Below are positions 3,970 through 15,960 of a stretch of DNA of 43,652 nt, piece by piece. The stretch is from a virus. Below the pieces are notes generated by a model. The model was not told where the DNA came from, searched no databases, and saw only the letters and a list, made by a program, of their open reading frames with translations. The stretch's first letter is position 1; the number at the start of each line of letters is the position of its first letter. The stretch lies in UHGV virus genome UHGV-0201380. The stretch is one strand, 5' to 3'. The translations under genes were made by a program, and so were the position numbers.

Positions 3970-4164
3970 TTAAACCTCCTTAGGAACACAGATTGCTTTA
4001 GCGGTATACACCCTGAATGTGTCAAACTTCTCTTCGAACGCCTTGGCCGCCTTGTTGCAGGCGGCCCCCGTTGTGAACTCTTGAGTGGTTAGCGCAGCGA
4101 AGTCTGTGTCGCTAACCGCACTGCCATTAATCGCCATGATTAAAACCCAGATACCCATACTCAT
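3970..4164 (-). CDS. Hypothetical small protein with hydrophobic N-terminus, translationally coupled between primase and helicase
   Basis: 64-aa ORF. N-terminal MSMGIWVLIMAINGSAVS looks like a signal peptide or TM segment. Its start overlaps the primase stop and its stop abuts the helicase start. Confidence 0.45.
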   Translation of the reverse strand: MSMGIWVLIMAINGSAVSDTDFAALTTQEFTTGAACNKAAKAFEEKFDTFRVYTAKAICVPKEV

Positions 4165-4946
4165 TGTAAAGCCTCCAGAATCTCTTTGATTTCTGCATCC
4201 TTCGGGTCCGCAGCGAAGTAATGCTCACGGCACTGCATGAACGGACGCAGTGCTCGGCGCGCCGCTGCTACCCCAGCATGTCCAGCCGGGTCATTATCCA
4301 GCATCAGAATCACTTCCGGGCGATTCTGAATCAGCCAAGCCCTCAGCGGCGTGGGCAAGCGTGTACCCAGCATAGCTATAGCCTGCACGTTCAATGCACT
4401 GTAACTCGTAACTGCGTGCTGTATCTTCCGGGCTGAGAGTAAGTCCTCGGTGAGCACGACCTTTAGAGGCGCGGCCGCAGCTACAGCCGGTGCTACGGCA
4501 GGTGCCGCGACAGCGAAAGCTATTGGCTGGCCGTACATTACCCACTTCGGTTGCTGCCGAGCATGCACTGCACGGCCCAGAGCAGCGCTTCCGACACGGA
4601 AGATTATCCGCTGTTTCTCTTTGCTCCATTCTGCATCCTCCACCATTTCAGGCATGATTCCCTTTGTGGTCAGGAATCCGTAAATAAAACTCTGCGTTTC
4701 CGCAGGCGCTTGGCTAATGCAAATTGCATCTGCAGGTGCAGCGGGCTGCACCCTCGGCTCTTCCTGTAACTGTATGCGCTGGTACTGCTTGTGCTCCTTG
4801 CCCACCTGTTTGCAGCGGTGGCAATAATATTCCCAGGCATCCGGGTTATTGTAGAGCACCCCGGCGGCGTCCCTGCCGCAGCACCGAAAGCGCGCCCTCT
4901 GCCCAACGGCCAGGCGCTTGCACGCTCTAAGCCAGGGCTGGTCCAT
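4161..4946 (-). CDS. DNA primase (zinc-ribbon plus TOPRIM domain)
   Basis: 261 aa. Cys-rich N-terminus (RFRCCGRD ... YYCHRCKQ) consistent with a zinc ribbon; ILMLDNDPAGHAG matches the TOPRIM DxD motif. ATG overlaps the stop of the upstream ORF by 1 nt. Confidence 0.75.
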   Translation of the reverse strand: MDQPWLRACKRLAVGQRARFRCCGRDAAGVLYNNPDAWEYYCHRCKQVGKEHKQYQRIQLQEEPRVQPAAPADAICISQAPAETQSFIYGFLTTKGIMPEMVEDAEWSKEKQRIIFRVGSAALGRAVHARQQPKWVMYGQPIAFAVAAPAVAPAVAAAAPLKVVLTEDLLSARKIQHAVTSYSALNVQAIAMLGTRLPTPLRAWLIQNRPEVILMLDNDPAGHAGVAAARRALRPFMQCREHYFAADPKDAEIKEILEALQ

Positions 4947-5398
4947 TACTGAATCTCTCGCTTAACTTTCATAGCCATTCGACGAATGTCATGTGCCAAC
5001 TGCAGGGCTGAATCGGGGCTCATATTAATACCAATCTCTCGCTCTGCCCGGGTGCTGCCTTTTCTAGGCACTATTCCGATGTATAGTAGTCCTTCGTTAG
5101 TCTCGCTGTCCTTTTCTAATACCAGCCGCTGGTCGTTTCCTGGGTCTCGTTTAGTGTTTAAATATGCTACACTAGACGGAACCGGTGGCAGCTCGTCCGC
5201 CTCCTCGATTAGCTGCCAGAAGTCGGCAGAGCCGCCATAGATATCCCCGGCATAATGAATCCCTGCGCCTTCGGTTAGCTTGATGTCTATATAGAGGCCA
5301 GGCCCCTTAGTGACTATCTCGCCGCGCACGGTCTTACCTTCAATCTTATTGATGCGCTGAACCTTATCACCTACTTTAAAAAGTTTAGACATAATCAA
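4946..5398 (-). CDS. Hypothetical protein
   Basis: 150-aa ORF tightly packed between the peptidase-like gene and primase, with 4-nt overlaps at both ends. No motif recognised. Confidence 0.5.
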   Translation of the reverse strand: MIMSKLFKVGDKVQRINKIEGKTVRGEIVTKGPGLYIDIKLTEGAGIHYAGDIYGGSADFWQLIEEADELPPVPSSVAYLNTKRDPGNDQRLVLEKDSETNEGLLYIGIVPRKGSTRAEREIGINMSPDSALQLAHDIRRMAMKVKREIQ

Positions 5399-6456
5399 CC
5401 CTCCACAATATTATCGTATCCGCCCCAGTCTTCTACGACTCGGGTGCCTAGTTCAATCAGTTCTTCTTTAAAGCCGTAATCGGAGAACACCATTATGTAC
5501 TCCGCCGCCTTCTCTGGATTCTCCTGTACCCAGCTAACCAGTTGTTGTTTAGAAAGCTGCGATACTTCCCGGAACGCGGCCAGTAACTGCGGGTCCTCGT
5601 CCGGCGGCATATCCCACGGCTGCCGTAAACTGAGCGTCGATGCAGCGAGCCACTGGCATAGGTCTGGCTCTGCTACTGCCGGGTCCCGCTCAATAGGGAG
5701 GTGCGAGAACGTGCCGTCTTGTAGTACCCGCTCAAGCACCTGGCCCAGTATGTTCAGGTCCAGCACCTCATCCGGGGTGTGCTCGTGCATGTACCCTACA
5801 CCGACGTTGGTGCACTCAGGAATGATGCCAACGAACTCAGCCGAGTCAGTATAAACACCCTTCTGCAAGTGCTGCTCCGTGCGTCCCAGGCGCTCTGCTA
5901 GGGTCTTGGCAAAGGTGTCAGAGCAGCAGCGCATATACCTTTGATGCGTAATGATACCGTCGCCGCGGCGGTCGAAGCTAATCATCGCCTTGACCCCAGT
6001 CCAAAATCCAGAGTCATCCTTGACCGATGCAGCGCTACCCTCGCAGCCTACCTCTTCATCCACGAAGAAGCAGTAGCGTCCGTGCACGCCGCGCCGCAGC
6101 ATCTCCAGCATCAGGTAGATACCGGCGCCGCAGTCGGCGCCCAAGCAGTCAGCTTGTTGCGGATTCTTTACGAACAGCACGCCCTTGTTAGTGCAGCCGA
6201 CGTCCGGCGCAGCGCTGGTTGGTCGTGCCACTGTGTCGAGATGAGACGTAAACGCTACGTCACTTTGCTCTGAGTCCCCCACCAGCACGAAGTAGTTCCC
6301 GTGCTTGTCCTTTACGTAGTGCATACCACTACCCAGCGCCTGTAGCGACTGCATAAGCAGCGGCTCGAACCACTTAGTGCTACCCCAGCTAGGCCGGTGC
6401 GTTTGCAGTATCTGCAAGAGCAGCTGCATATCAATCCCGTGCGGATTCAAGAACAT
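5395..6456 (-). CDS. Predicted dinuclear-zinc peptidase-fold protein (M20/M28/M42-like motif pattern)
   Basis: 353 aa. Ordered motifs SHLDTV (HxD), GADCGAG (D), VDEEVGCEG (EE), GYMHEHTPDE (H) match the metal-ligand pattern of M20/M28/M42 peptidases. ATG is preceded by GAGGAGG and overlaps the stop of the upstream acidic protein. Function inferred from motif pattern only. Confidence 0.55.
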   Translation of the reverse strand: MFLNPHGIDMQLLLQILQTHRPSWGSTKWFEPLLMQSLQALGSGMHYVKDKHGNYFVLVGDSEQSDVAFTSHLDTVARPTSAAPDVGCTNKGVLFVKNPQQADCLGADCGAGIYLMLEMLRRGVHGRYCFFVDEEVGCEGSAASVKDDSGFWTGVKAMISFDRRGDGIITHQRYMRCCSDTFAKTLAERLGRTEQHLQKGVYTDSAEFVGIIPECTNVGVGYMHEHTPDEVLDLNILGQVLERVLQDGTFSHLPIERDPAVAEPDLCQWLAASTLSLRQPWDMPPDEDPQLLAAFREVSQLSKQQLVSWVQENPEKAAEYIMVFSDYGFKEELIELGTRVVEDWGGYDNIVEG

Positions 6457-8138
6457 TAAGCTGCCTCCTCTGCTTCTTCTTCATCTTCATCGTTGCCCAG
6501 GTACTTCTCTCCCAAGCAATCAGCTGCATGCTCAGTGAGAATTAACCCGTGCACTGGGTGTTCTTCTGCGTGCTCAATAAGCACTTGCCGGTCCTGTGCA
6601 AACACCAGTTCCTCTTGGTCGTGCACTACACCCTCTACTTCGCAGCGCTCTATGTCCTCGTCGTATACATAGGCGTCGTGGTAATCAGACCAGGTGCAGC
6701 TCCAGCGATTATGCAGACCATCACGCCCAACTACGTACACAAAATCCCCTTCTTCTACGCAGCCGTCGCAGACCATATCACCATCTGCGGTCTCCTGCAT
6801 GTCATCTACAGAGTAGCGACATTCACAGCAGCAGCACCGAGCAGACTCAGTGCCTACGTAGATGTATCCTTCTGAGTCTTGTGCCTCGTACTCATAAGCA
6901 TCACGGATTACAAAGGCATCATCCCCATACTCATCTACGCCGCACTGGCTGCTATCTAGGTATGGCATCAGCACTGCGCCGTTGTATGTTGGGTGCGGTA
7001 TTCGCGCCAGCATTACCCCTTCGAGACATTCAATGTTTTTGGTGTACCCATGCCCCCGCAGGATTGCATCCGCAGCGTTGCCGTAAGCGCGGACGTACTC
7101 GTTAGTTTCTGTGTTAACGATTGCCCGTGCCTGCACTTCGAAATCGTCGCCGAACAGCTCCCCGGTGTACTGGATGAACAGGCGCAGCCCATTATCCGGC
7201 AACCCGTGGCTGGTGGTAGCGTACGTCCGCACAGAGCTATGCTCAAATGAGTACCCGCTCATGCAGCTACCCGGGCCATTCTCGTAGGCGTCGTACCATT
7301 CCTGCTCGGTCTTGCACAGGTACGTTGTAGGGTCTACGTTCATAGCCTTGAGGTCTTCGATAGCATCGCGGAAGTCCACACCATTTCCGTAGTAGTTAGC
7401 GAGCCACTTACCTACGCGCATCTCTACGCAGCGGTACTCAGTAACTGCTGCGAAGTCCTTGTGCATCCGCGGCTGCCCCAGCATCACGATAGGTTCGCCG
7501 TTGCGGAAACCAAAGCCCAAAGGCACGGCGAATCTAGACACTACGAAGCCGTGCAACTTCATGAGCAGCGCAGCTAAGTTGCCATCGCGGGTGTGGCGGC
7601 CGTAATCGTAGCCAGTGTATAAGCGGCGCTGCTGCTCTTCTGGTGCAAGCATGATGCGCTCAAATAACTGCACGGCCTGCTTGTGCACCTTGTAACCTGT
7701 GAATTCTTCGACGCAAGCAACTACGCGCTCAACCACTACATCCTCGCCCTCATAGAAGTCGCGGCGGCGTTCCCAGAACTTGCTGTCTATGGTGATTCGC
7801 ACCGGTTCAAAGAGTTCGCAGAAAGTTCCGGACCGGTACAGGTCCACCTTTTGCAACGGGCCGAGCGTCATCGTTGATTCGCGATACTCTGGGTGCAGTG
7901 CCCCGCCTATAGTCACCTCTAAGCCTGGAGTGTGCGCACTGACAGTGCGGAGACCCATAAGCACCTGCAGCGGACCCTCAGTGTGGGGATGGTCCTCCCC
8001 TTGCATTTGCAAGTCCTGGAACGGGGTCCAGTAATCACCGCTGGAATACATTGATTCTTTAATCGGCAGTGCGTTTGCACCTTCCGGTAACACTACTTTC
8101 CATTCGATAGGTGCTGTGTTAGTTTCTTGCATTTTCAT
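6456..8138 (-). CDS. Large early/middle protein of unknown function with Cys cluster and polyacidic C-terminal tail
   Basis: Track ORF is 6456..8426 (656 aa), but its 5' end overlaps the upstream 114-aa gene. ATG codons at about 8138 and 8132 follow a GGGAG Shine-Dalgarno, giving about 560 aa. Contains CCCCECRYSVDDMQETADGDMVCDGC and ends DEDEEEAEEAA. Confidence 0.6.
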   Translation of the reverse strand: MKMQETNTAPIEWKVVLPEGANALPIKESMYSSGDYWTPFQDLQMQGEDHPHTEGPLQVLMGLRTVSAHTPGLEVTIGGALHPEYRESTMTLGPLQKVDLYRSGTFCELFEPVRITIDSKFWERRRDFYEGEDVVVERVVACVEEFTGYKVHKQAVQLFERIMLAPEEQQRRLYTGYDYGRHTRDGNLAALLMKLHGFVVSRFAVPLGFGFRNGEPIVMLGQPRMHKDFAAVTEYRCVEMRVGKWLANYYGNGVDFRDAIEDLKAMNVDPTTYLCKTEQEWYDAYENGPGSCMSGYSFEHSSVRTYATTSHGLPDNGLRLFIQYTGELFGDDFEVQARAIVNTETNEYVRAYGNAADAILRGHGYTKNIECLEGVMLARIPHPTYNGAVLMPYLDSSQCGVDEYGDDAFVIRDAYEYEAQDSEGYIYVGTESARCCCCECRYSVDDMQETADGDMVCDGCVEEGDFVYVVGRDGLHNRWSCTWSDYHDAYVYDEDIERCEVEGVVHDQEELVFAQDRQVLIEHAEEHPVHGLILTEHAADCLGEKYLGNDEDEEEAEEAA

Positions 8139-8178
8139 TTGCTCCCGAGTTAATAGAACTTCGTCATGCACTAAGAGT

Positions 8179-8523
8179 TCAGCGTGCGTACCACGCGGAG
8201 AGTTGTTGCTGCTTATAATAGGCGCGGACTGCGGCTCTAAATTGCTTAAAAGCTCCGCGGTATCCATTCCGCCGTAGTGCTGCAACCACATCGAATGCAA
8301 TGTGCTCTTGCAGCTTCCGCGCGGCAGACTCAGTGTACTCTCGATAGGTTGTGAGAACAGTGCCAATATCCTCTTTTCTAACTCGGAGTAATCGACGCTC
8401 AACTGGCACGATTTGCTTGAGTTCATTAGGAACCTCTTTGAATGTTTCCCAAGTGCAACCGCACTTGCCCTGCGTTTCCAGCAGACGCCAGCACAGCAGC
8501 GCTGTTTCGTCTACTGTGAGCAT
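8179..8523 (-). CDS. Hypothetical early protein
   Basis: 114-aa ORF; ATG preceded by AAGGA with about 6-nt spacing. No recognisable domain. Confidence 0.55.
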   Translation of the reverse strand: MLTVDETALLCWRLLETQGKCGCTWETFKEVPNELKQIVPVERRLLRVRKEDIGTVLTTYREYTESAARKLQEHIAFDVVAALRRNGYRGAFKQFRAAVRAYYKQQQLSAWYAR

Positions 8524-8729
8524 GCGCTATCCTTGAATACCACGTTGCGGGCCACAAGGGTGCTACAACTTAGCATTACCACCCCGCCAACTGTGTGACT
8601 GGACGGCAACCACAGTCTAGTCTCCTCTGCATAGAATTCTGCGAGGGCGTGCAGTGGACTAAATAGAGGTACCCGGTAAAGAAACCCATTAGGGCGCTTA
8701 TATACGTCATAAATGTCCTGCTTGCTCAT
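8511..8729 (-). CDS. Hypothetical early protein
   Basis: 72-aa track ORF in the early gene string, overlapping the next gene by 13 nt. A further 58-aa ORF (about 8730..8905, below the track cutoff) appears coupled upstream. Confidence 0.4.
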   Translation of the reverse strand: MSKQDIYDVYKRPNGFLYRVPLFSPLHALAEFYAEETRLWLPSSHTVGGVVMLSCSTLVARNVVFKDSACSQ

Positions 8730-8914
8730 ACTACACCCCGCACATTAAACCGGAAGCAGTAGCCGCGCAGGGTCATACCCAGGCGCTTTGCTTGTTTCTC
8801 ATAGTGCTGGCGCAGCGCTGCCTTCGCGTTGTACTCCCGCGCCAGCCCGTCGATTGTTGGTTGCTGCTTACGCATCAGCAGCGTTTCAGGATTCTTTCCG
8901 TGCATGCCCCCACC

Positions 8915-10966: not shown

Positions 10967-11383
10967 TCACTGGGAGCAAAAAGAGTAAGCAGACCCCCAA
11001 AGGTCTGCGTGCAGTAAACTATTGTAGTCCCCATAAGTCACGTCGAACTCTCGCCAGTTAGTATCGTACTCAGGACTAGCCAATAACTCATCCTTTGTGA
11101 AGCATCTCCCTTCCTGAATCTGTGCTAAGTGTATGGCCCGGTGAGTGTCAGCGCTAACCAGTATCAGGTTATTGAAGTCACAGTTAAGGCGGTTACTGTC
11201 ACAGTGATGTACGTGATAGCCAGAACCGTAGCTAGTGATTCCCAGAGCATCCATAACCACGGCCCTATGCAGCGCCACAGTCTTATAGTCTCTCTTACCT
11301 CGCTTATTCACATACTCAGGCCCAGCACCATTAATCACTGGATAACCTTCCTTATCAACCACAATCTTAAATGTTCTAGCCAC
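10967..11383 (-). CDS. HNH homing endonuclease
   Basis: 138 aa with HVHHCDSNRLNCDFNNLILVSADTHRAIH (HNH core). Free-standing, between the terminus repeat region and the early promoters. A GC hairpin plus T-run overlaps its last codons (about 10975..11008). Confidence 0.8.
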   Translation of the reverse strand: MARTFKIVVDKEGYPVINGAGPEYVNKRGKRDYKTVALHRAVVMDALGITSYGSGYHVHHCDSNRLNCDFNNLILVSADTHRAIHLAQIQEGRCFTKDELLASPEYDTNWREFDVTYGDYNSLLHADLWGSAYSFCSQ

Positions 11384-12205: not shown

Positions 12206-12667
12206 TCAGATATACACCTGCCCCGGGGTGAAGGCCTTGTGTTGCTCTTGACGTTTCTCTAGTACCCACTTGCAGATAACTTCGTAGGAGCTGTGCTTCT
12301 TCATGTAACGCTTACCGTCCTTCCAGAACTCCCCGCGCCAGCAGGTGCCAGTGTAGTATACACCCCTAGGATGTTCCCGCTTAGACCTGCGTGCGTTACA
12401 GTTGTTTTCGCTAACCGTAGCTAAGCGCAGGTTCTCTAATCTGTTGTCACCGGGGTTTTGGTTGATGTGGTCCACCACATATCCGTCTGGAATAGGCCCG
12501 TTGTGTAGTTCCCAGATGAGGCGGTGTGCCTGTATCTTTCTACCAGATACCTGTACCACCCAGTAGCCACGAGTGTTGCGGGTACCCGCTGGAGCACCGG
12601 CGCGCCTACCCTTGAGCCACACCAAGCAGCTAGGGGATGTTGTGTCATATTTGATGTTCATAGACAT
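12206..12667 (-). CDS. HNH homing endonuclease (HNH plus AP2-like DNA-binding region)
   Basis: 153 aa with HRLIWELHNGPIPDGYVVDHINQNPGDNRLENLRLATVSENNCNA. Last gene before the terminus region. The upstream intergenic region carries GTATCTCTA direct repeats. Confidence 0.85.
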   Translation of the reverse strand: MSMNIKYDTTSPSCLVWLKGRRAGAPAGTRNTRGYWVVQVSGRKIQAHRLIWELHNGPIPDGYVVDHINQNPGDNRLENLRLATVSENNCNARRSKREHPRGVYYTGTCWRGEFWKDGKRYMKKHSSYEVICKWVLEKRQEQHKAFTPGQVYI

Positions 12668-14719: not shown

Positions 14720-15328
14720 TTATCCTCCGGTCTTAGTAAGAGCTGCCACCGCAGCATTTACATTCTTATACTGATTCCCAATGGCCTTGCTCTGCCACTG
14801 TCTGCGCCCCCATAGGCCCCAGCACACTTTATTGCGCTGCCCGTTAATATACTGAGAACAGTCGAAGGTCCAGCGGTTGCTACCCTTGTACACCCAACCG
14901 ATGCCCGGGGATTTCTGCTGGTACTTGCTAATATAGCGCCAGTCCAGTACGGCCTTTCCAGCTGCTGCGTAATCCAGGTTCTTGAGATGCCGCTTCACGG
15001 AGCTGCCGTTGAAGCCAGCTACTCCTACGTTATAAATAAAGTCTATAGACCCAACCAGAGCTACATCAGAGAGCTGCATAGGAAGCCCGTCAAGGGCTTT
15101 TGCGTGTTCCCCTGCTGATTGTATCAGTTGCTTCTGACAATCGCTCAGCGTGGCTCTCTGGCCCATCTTGACGCCCTTTGTCTCGCCATAGCAGATGGTA
15201 GGGACACCGGCACTGTCCCTATAGGCGGGGAGGCTTAGACCTTCGTTATGCTTAATCACTCCAGTGATAGCGCCGCCGAGCATGGTGGCCCCCGTAAGGG
15301 CCGCCACAACCTTAGTCCTTAAACTCAT
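14720..15328 (-). CDS. SAR endolysin (T4 lysozyme-like, GH24 muramidase)
   Basis: 202 aa. N-terminal weakly hydrophobic Gly/Ala-rich segment (VVAALTGATMLGGAITGV) is a signal-anchor-release domain. EGLSLPAYRDSAGVPTICYGET matches the T4 lysozyme Glu/Asp/Thr catalytic region, and GVAGF is the conserved later motif. Confidence 0.85.
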   Translation of the reverse strand: MSLRTKVVAALTGATMLGGAITGVIKHNEGLSLPAYRDSAGVPTICYGETKGVKMGQRATLSDCQKQLIQSAGEHAKALDGLPMQLSDVALVGSIDFIYNVGVAGFNGSSVKRHLKNLDYAAAGKAVLDWRYISKYQQKSPGIGWVYKGSNRWTFDCSQYINGQRNKVCWGLWGRRQWQSKAIGNQYKNVNAAVAALTKTGG

Positions 15329-15563
15329 ATTTAATAGTCCCCTTACGTGCCTGCTCCTCTAGGAGCTTGAATGTACGTCGCTTGTAATACGCATTCCACG
15401 CCAGGGTTAACACTGCGCACACCGTCGCAGTGATGAAGCTGATAGTGCTCCAGTTCCAGCTCATTAACTCTGCCAACCAACCTCCTGATACCGTAGCGCC
15501 GGTAACTGCTGCACCTGCCCGGGTAGCGATGTCTGCTCCAACCATGTCTCCCACCTTAATCAT
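15312..15563 (-). CDS. Holin (pinholin-like, two TMDs)
   Basis: 83 aa with two hydrophobic segments (the first Gly/Ala-rich, the second WSTISFITATVCAVLTLAW) and a charged C-terminus. Overlaps the endolysin start. Confidence 0.6.
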   Translation of the reverse strand: MIKVGDMVGADIATRAGAAVTGATVSGGWLAELMSWNWSTISFITATVCAVLTLAWNAYYKRRTFKLLEEQARKGTIKYEFKD

Positions 15564-15960
15564 CCTGCTGCCCCTTCTTCCTGAACAGCTTACGAATCAC
15601 CAGAATGACCACTAGGAAGACCAGAGGAATACTGGCCCCAGCTAATCCGGCGAGGATAAGACTGTAACTATCATTGTTAACCACCTGCAGGCGTTCTGCC
15701 TGGATTGTCCCGGTGCTAATAGTTTGCACCTGCTTCTTACTGGACGTGTCCAAAGTGCCTACGTTAGAATCCTGTACATCAGTTTTGTTGGTGGTGCTGG
15801 AGTCCACCTTGTTATTCAAGCCAACGGTTTGTTTGGTGTTCTCGGCACCAACCTGAGCAGATACATCCGGCTTAGAACCAACTAAGCCGGTGAGTGCAGA
15901 GGTCGCCGAGCAACCAGTCAGAGTAACCGCGAGCAGCAACCCAGCGACCAGTTTACGCAT
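15556..15960 (-). CDS. Spanin, unimolecular-type topology (lipoprotein with C-terminal TMD)
   Basis: 134 aa. N-terminal signal with lipobox LTGC (MRKLVAGLLLAVTLTGCS) and C-terminal TM segment (LILAGLAGASIPLVFLVVILVI) followed by basic residues. No separate i-spanin or embedded o-spanin seen. Confidence 0.5.
   Translation of the reverse strand: MRKLVAGLLLAVTLTGCSATSALTGLVGSKPDVSAQVGAENTKQTVGLNNKVDSSTTNKTDVQDSNVGTLDTSSKKQVQTISTGTIQAERLQVVNNDSYSLILAGLAGASIPLVFLVVILVIRKLFRKKGQQDD

Follow-up and report, generated by a model that had tools for sequence, protein, structure and literature searches.

The window analysed here is the complete genome, 43,652 bp long with 54% G+C, of the virus UHGV-0201380, a Drulisvirus (KP34-like Klebsiella podovirus; Autographiviridae, Slopekvirinae). 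This work concerns two adjacent genes in it: a peptidase gene at 5395-6456 and, directly upstream, a gene at 6456-8426 whose product we call the partner. The window is reverse-complemented and rotated (circularly permuted) relative to the usual genome layout, and all of its long genes lie on the minus strand, as do all the features described below. About 250 phage records match the peptidase region at 88-95% DNA identity. The peptidase gene sits in the tightly packed early/replication operon, in which it is followed by the genes for a 150-amino-acid protein, primase, helicase and DNA polymerase. An earlier note on this DNA had described the gene as part of a podovirus replication or early module in which its role is unclear, and that description is right on both points.

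The peptidase open reading frame (ORF) comprises 353 codons, from an ATG to a TGA stop at 5395-5397, on the minus strand, a refinement to the earlier note; the plus-strand reading of the same interval is riddled with stop codons. Its product has 353 amino acids, a mass of 39.4 kDa and an isoelectric point of 4.8. All four motifs quoted in the note were located in it: SHLDTV at residues 71-76, GADCGAG at 106-112, DEEVGCEG at 133-140 and HEHTPDE at 224-230. In a predicted model of the protein, the catalytic domain of clan MH type (approximately residues 45-250; 5707-6324) is confidently modelled and contains neither the lid of M20 nor the insert of M42. The remaining residues, 251-353 (5398-5706), form a C-terminal extension that is helical and modelled with low confidence, the predicted local distance difference test score (pLDDT) per block being 35-69 from residue 261 on. 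The sequence of this tail varies between subfamilies in the family alignment, and a sequence search of PDB with it gave no match. The maximum hydropathy in a 19-residue window is 1.1, and the peptidase is predicted to be a soluble cytoplasmic protein because sequence analysis found neither a hydrophobic or transmembrane segment nor a signal-like N-terminus.

The note had proposed a dinuclear-zinc hydrolase of the M20/M28/M42 type, a proposal to be abandoned if profile searches failed to align the motif residues with metal ligands. Such searches were run, and the residues do align. When a profile of 24 homologues was compared with PDB, it matched the PepT-like tripeptidases 3rza (E=9e-14) and 3gb0 (E=2e-13) and the M42 enzyme TET1 (1.5e-6). 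The protein also matches PHROG 4191, annotated as "peptidase", over its full length (residues 6-352, E=2.9e-155). The only Pfam model above threshold is M28 (PF04389), and this match is marginal: 23.0 bits against a gathering threshold of 21.3 (E=7.3e-5), with residues 58-167 aligned to positions 6-98 of the 193 in the profile. The precomputed PF04389 label is found on only some of the homologues.

The residues of the metal site can be followed through an alignment of 180 homologous sequences, down to about 31% identity, in which H72, D74, D108, E134, E135, D162 and H226 are invariant except for one N-terminal gap. His72 (codon CAT, 6241-6243), the first ligand, lies in SHLDTV, which pairs with FTSHMDTV of PepT; it is present in 179 of the 180 sequences, the gap accounting for the other, and Asp74 (6235-6237) completes the HxD motif. 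The expected bridging ligand is Asp108 (codon GAC, 6133-6135), in the segment LGADCGAG, which corresponds to LGADDKAG in PepT and GLDDRFG in TET1. Next come Glu134, the expected general base, and Glu135, a metal ligand (together 6052-6057), in DEEVG, aligned with GEESG of PepT and QEEVG of TET1. The fourth ligand, Asp162 (codon GAC, 5971-5973), lies in SFDRRG and is aligned with an Asp of TET1, and the fifth, His226 (codon CAC, 5779-5781), lies in VGYMHEHTPDE, aligned with VGYEEIHTTNE of PepT; of the two histidines in HEHTPDE, the ligand is H226. Each of the residues from Asp108 to His226 named here is conserved in 180 of 180 sequences. The roles of the motif residues in the reference enzymes, as metal ligands and general base, are well established for the clan.

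Thus aligned, the protein has the ligand order that clan MH requires, namely His, bridging Asp, Glu, Asp/Glu and His, as well as the alpha/beta catalytic-domain fold of the clan. The alignment identifies the peptidase as a predicted clan-MH dinuclear metallohydrolase of the M20/M28/M42 type. Every motif in the ligand list of the note (HxD, D, EE, H) was recovered, while the list had left out one of the five ligands, D162; the proposed membership stands at the level of the clan and fails for canonical M20 or M42, whose inserted domains are missing. A pseudoenzyme or scaffold was ruled out because every catalytic residue is invariant, and a mononuclear M28 homologue of the glutaminyl-cyclase type was ruled out since the dinuclear site retains its full set of five ligands. 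In addition, several residues are invariant specifically in this family: R163 (beside the ligand D162), Q172, D204, C215, N217, Y222 and E230.

The assignment as a peptidase is not new and repeats public annotation. The KP34 genome paper of 2011 (PMC3082699) already called the orthologue, gp11, a "putative peptidase", and a comparison of five KP34-like phages lists it as one of their conserved proteins (PMC4411677). In PhiM1-like phages it is the sole conserved early ORF with a predicted function, carrying the IPR007484 peptidase signature (PMC6115819). Relatives in GenBank, which include hundreds of related Klebsiella phages, are mostly labelled "peptidase" or "putative peptidase family M28", and orthologues in Klebsiella phages reach about 98% amino acid identity (97.7% in vB_KpP_JKT6). 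A literature search for the function, transcriptomics, proteomics, structure or phenotype of any family member returned annotation tables only. Clustered at 90% identity, the family as a whole comprises about 1,700 clusters. It is frequent in marine phages and almost confined to phages: a search of one genome from each of 185,579 bacterial and archaeal species found only 13 true members.

The partner is a protein of 656 amino acids, orthologous to KP34 gp10 and belonging to phrog_6980. Its stop codon and the start codon of the peptidase overlap in the pentanucleotide TAATG (6454-6458), as read directly from the sequence, and a Shine-Dalgarno-like GAGGAGG lies 7 nucleotides upstream of the peptidase start, within the codons of the acidic tail of the partner. 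The conserved core of the partner, approximately residues 366-510 (6897-7331), contains S387-C388-M389, Y402, R434, Y448-G449 and P488-Y489-x-D491. The family has 275 representatives at 50% identity; across 146 representatives at this identity level there is no variation at C388 and M389 (both in the core motif GPxSCM), R434 and Y448, and almost none at S387, Y402, G449 and P488-Y489-x-D491. The core possibly adopts a GNAT-like alpha/beta fold. It is followed by a zinc ribbon of the form CxxC...CxxC (C531, C534, C553 and C556; 6759-6836), in which the Cys columns are invariant, and then by an acidic C-terminal tail (…NDEDEEEAEEAA).

Searches with single partner proteins against Pfam, NCBIfam and PHROG functions gave no assignment, only sub-threshold noise (LIM, BVU_2266-like), and the outcome was equally null for profiles built from nine compact homologues of 320-440 amino acids, from 22 long homologues and from 93 diverse representatives. 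Nothing significant was found in PDB by sequence or profile; the zinc-finger matches of ZZ-, LIM- and FYVE-like type had E>0.2 and reflected Cys spacing only. In the partner family no stretch is sufficiently conserved for deriving search patterns. Neither the peptidase nor the partner matched any PADLOC model, in a library that covers defence but not anti-defence systems.

The compact partner homologues of 320-440 amino acids that are encoded just downstream of a peptidase homologue (loci L009, L040, L041, L048, L057, L071 and L072) also have acidic ends, and in several of them the last or nearly last residue is aromatic (…VEEDNW, …DDDDQY, …DDDDAWN). T7 gp2.5 and bacterial SSB bind replisome proteins via acidic tails that end in an aromatic residue. 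By analogy, the acidic, aromatic-capped tails of the compact partners might hint at contact with the replisome.

The conservation of the gene pair was assessed in 60 viral peptidase loci in which all ORFs were clustered. These loci come from Vibrio, Pectobacterium, Thermus, Bacillus and Cellulophaga phages and from 52 IMG/VR contigs that are 4-465 kb long, and they include distant peptidase homologues of 31-45% identity. In 38 of the 60 loci the gene directly upstream, in the same orientation, encodes a partner homologue, at a median gap of 11 nucleotides, and three more divergent upstream homologues (L047, hmmsearch 4e-25; PhiM1 gp09, BLASTP 3e-9; L078, hhalign 94.8%) bring the total to 41. 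In nine other loci, mostly on large contigs of about 45-465 kb, the partner is instead downstream, as a protein of 320-440 amino acids that is within about 260 nucleotides of the peptidase gene in eight cases; this compact protein has the partner core (hhalign 97.2%, E=2.9e-11). Of the rest, five loci end before the upstream DNA and five have no partner in the fetched flanks. The partner also adjoins 8 of the 13 family members in bacterial records, 7 times upstream and once downstream, so that it is adjacent in 58 of 73 diverse loci overall, in either gene order. Counted by genus, the two genes are equally frequent in isolate phages (Klebsiella 232, Vibrio 42, Escherichia 10, Shigella 4), and in Drulisvirus, Maculvirus and Phimunavirus synteny is kept, with the peptidase gene between that of a large hypothetical protein and that of the primase. 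The pair ranges over enterobacterial podoviruses, marine large-genome phages and alphaproteobacterial prophages. Because adjacency holds whichever gene comes first, and in genome contexts that are unrelated, these data suggest that the peptidase and its partner are a functional pair. One caveat applies to the count: many of the loci share ancestry, dereplication at 80% leaves only 23 partner sequences, and 58 of 73 thus overstates the number of independent events.

Several individual loci are worth describing. On a Microvirga flocculans scaffold (L093, 4367-6981), the pair is part of a prophage and has a tail-collar-domain gene on one side and a tyrosine integrase gene on the other; it adjoins an outer-membrane beta-barrel gene, no replication genes are nearby, and the position is that of accessory genes. 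One 150-kb contig (IMGVR_UViG_3300042878_001826) has two peptidase copies, L040 and L058, each with a partner-family gene nearby; at L058 the two are separated by 4.1 kb and lie on opposite strands. On a marine contig without a partner (L007), a gene for a RimB-like putative protease (PF05618; 7059-7457) precedes the peptidase homologue by two genes, near glycosyltransferase and thymidylate synthase genes. A correlation of the type of the peptidase C-terminal tail with the type and position of the partner was discarded as evidence because it is confounded with phylogeny.

Taken together, we consider it probable that the protein is a soluble cytoplasmic exopeptidase or amidohydrolase of clan MH that works as one module with its partner. 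By analogy with the reference enzymes, two metals, most likely zinc, would be held by H72, D108 (bridging), E135, D162 and H226, and E134 would deprotonate the metal-bridging water, which would then attack the amide bond. Having neither the lid of M20 nor the insert of M42, the protein is expected to have an open active site, as in the M28 aminopeptidases. An open site would in turn favour the trimming of a peptide or protein end, or the removal of an N-linked acyl or aminoacyl group (for example, on a macromolecule), over deacylation of a small metabolite such as an acyl-amino acid. Translation of the peptidase is presumably coupled to that of the partner, with which it is co-inherited, and the coupling of the two proteins in one module may be physical or functional; the partner may supply the substrate, bind it or be the substrate itself. 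The purpose would be an accessory one, host takeover or counter-defence rather than replication chemistry. In its most specific form, the proposal would be an undescribed two-component phage system in which a GNAT-like transferase or substrate adaptor and a lid-less M20-type exopeptidase remodel protein N-termini, of host or phage origin, in aid of takeover or counter-defence; we regard this version as speculative and, as stated, unlikely.

A simpler explanation is that the protein is a stand-alone PepT-like aminopeptidase or tripeptidase that converts host peptides into free amino acids for phage protein synthesis, the neighbouring gene being unrelated. The closest relatives in sequence and structure are indeed PepT-like, some homologues (for example, in Thermus P23-45 and Bacillus Sophrita) have no partner in the flanks examined, and the family is frequent in marine phages, whose hosts may be nutrient-limited. 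However, an unrelated neighbour would hardly account for the adjacency in 58 of 73 loci, in both orders and in unrelated contexts; the protein also lacks the lid with which PepT shapes its tripeptide pocket, and hosts already encode PepT, PepA, PepB and PepN; on balance we think this explanation doubtful. Slightly less credence is given to an enzyme of counter-defence or host takeover that destroys a host immune signal containing a peptide or amino acid, or processes a protein of the host, the partner conferring specificity on it, an explanation that is compatible with the one-module proposal rather than exclusive of it. It would fit the location in the early region in podoviruses, the near confinement of the family to phages, the ocr-like anti-restriction gene near the homologue in Bacillus phage Sophrita, and the integrase-proximal edge, typical of accessory genes, that the Microvirga prophage copy occupies. 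Against it, neither protein matched a PADLOC model, in that library of defence rather than anti-defence systems, and the gene belongs to the conserved core of the KP34-like group (PMC4411677), whereas anti-defence genes are often variable.

If the partner were an acyl- or aminoacyl-transferase of GNAT fold, the two proteins could instead form an acylation/deacylation pair, in which the M20-like enzyme, as ArgE or DapE do, would take the group off a metabolite, a protein or a tRNA-linked amino acid; we think this unlikely. The least probable explanation by far is a hydrolase associated with the cell wall or lysis, one of the substrate options that the note had listed. In its favour, the clan has members whose substrates are peptidoglycan precursors (DapE), and metallopeptidases do occur among phage endolysins. 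However, the protein lacks a signal peptide and a transmembrane segment, its fold is unlike known endolysin peptidase families, and its gene is placed in the early operon near the primase, while the phage has its own endolysin (14720-15328) and Rz-like spanin (15556-15960) about 8 kb away. Another option in the note, a nucleotide-linked substrate, gains no support from the data, nor do they speak against it. The preferred reading remains the cytoplasmic exopeptidase or amidohydrolase that acts together with its partner.

The other genes of the region are as follows. The next gene in the operon (4946-5392) is KP34 gp12-like and belongs to phrog_4317, although its 150-amino-acid product matches just the C-terminal third of that 455-position profile; it matched no PADLOC model. 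Its likely start is the ATG at 5390-5392, 2 nucleotides past the peptidase stop, with a Shine-Dalgarno-like GGAGGG upstream. The TTG start chosen by the ORF tool (4946-5398), which would overlap the peptidase stop, is less plausible. The primase gene (4161-4946) follows, the DNA polymerase gene is at 73-2490, and the operon resumes from the far end of the window. On the other side of the pair, a conserved early gene at 8726-8905 encodes a 59-amino-acid protein that matches Pfam DUF7267 (E=1.6e-25). Two genes of the HNH homing endonuclease type (10967-11383 and 12206-12667) are located within or close to the early region and the likely genome ends, and the number of HNH endonuclease genes annotated in the matching region differs among the related phage records retrieved. 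The physical ends of the genome probably fall at around 11.4-12.8 kb, where the tail-fibre and HNH genes give way to the early genes.

The fold assignment goes no further than public annotation does; what is useful is a by-product, the conserved module of two genes, which we regard as a lead of moderate interest. KP34-like phages, which are widely considered for therapy, carry in this peptidase a member of a large, almost phage-confined and functionally dark family, and the partner is equally widespread, with invariant Cys, Met, Arg and Tyr residues and no recognisable domain. Their tight linkage, independent of gene order, provides a testable handle on two genes of the phage dark matter together. 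If the pair is a true module of host takeover or anti-defence, it matters for the host range of phages in therapy and could reveal new enzymology; if the peptidase is a mere peptide-recycling enzyme, it is ordinary.

Among known systems, the KP34 gp11 orthologues (Drulisvirus, VP93-like Maculvirus and PhiM1-like Phimunavirus; PHROG 4191) are the same gene and differ in nothing of substance. Outside the phages, the nearest family by sequence is M20B (PepT). The alignment with PepT pairs query residues 66-142 with 72-149 and query residues 182-244 with 302-364, which leaves about 150 PepT residues without a counterpart (approximately 150-300 in 3gb0); these unmatched residues include the position of the lid/dimerisation domain, about 100 residues in PepT, that M20 enzymes have between the fourth ligand and the last His. 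In the phage protein D162 and H226 are 64 residues apart, so that there is no room for this domain. No Pfam M20 model matched at E<=1, and the curated NCBIfam PepT-like model (TIGR01883) failed, with 16.6 bits against a cut-off of 274. The phage protein further differs from the PepT-like tripeptidases (PDB 3gb0 and 3rza; 1fno and 1vix of Salmonella and E. coli) in its extra C-terminal tail and in the family-specific invariant residues R163, Q172, C215, N217, Y222 and E230. Compared with the M42 TET aminopeptidases (PhTET1 2cf4, YpdE-like 1ylo, PepA 3kl9), it is missing the oligomerisation insert: the 36 residues between H72 and D108 leave no room for it, TET1 residues of about 66-160 are unaligned, and there is no evidence that the phage protein assembles into dodecamers of the TET type. 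It is the M28 aminopeptidases (Aeromonas AAP 1rtq, Streptomyces SGAP 1cp7 and LapA) that are likewise single-domain and lid-less enzymes with a five-ligand dinuclear site.
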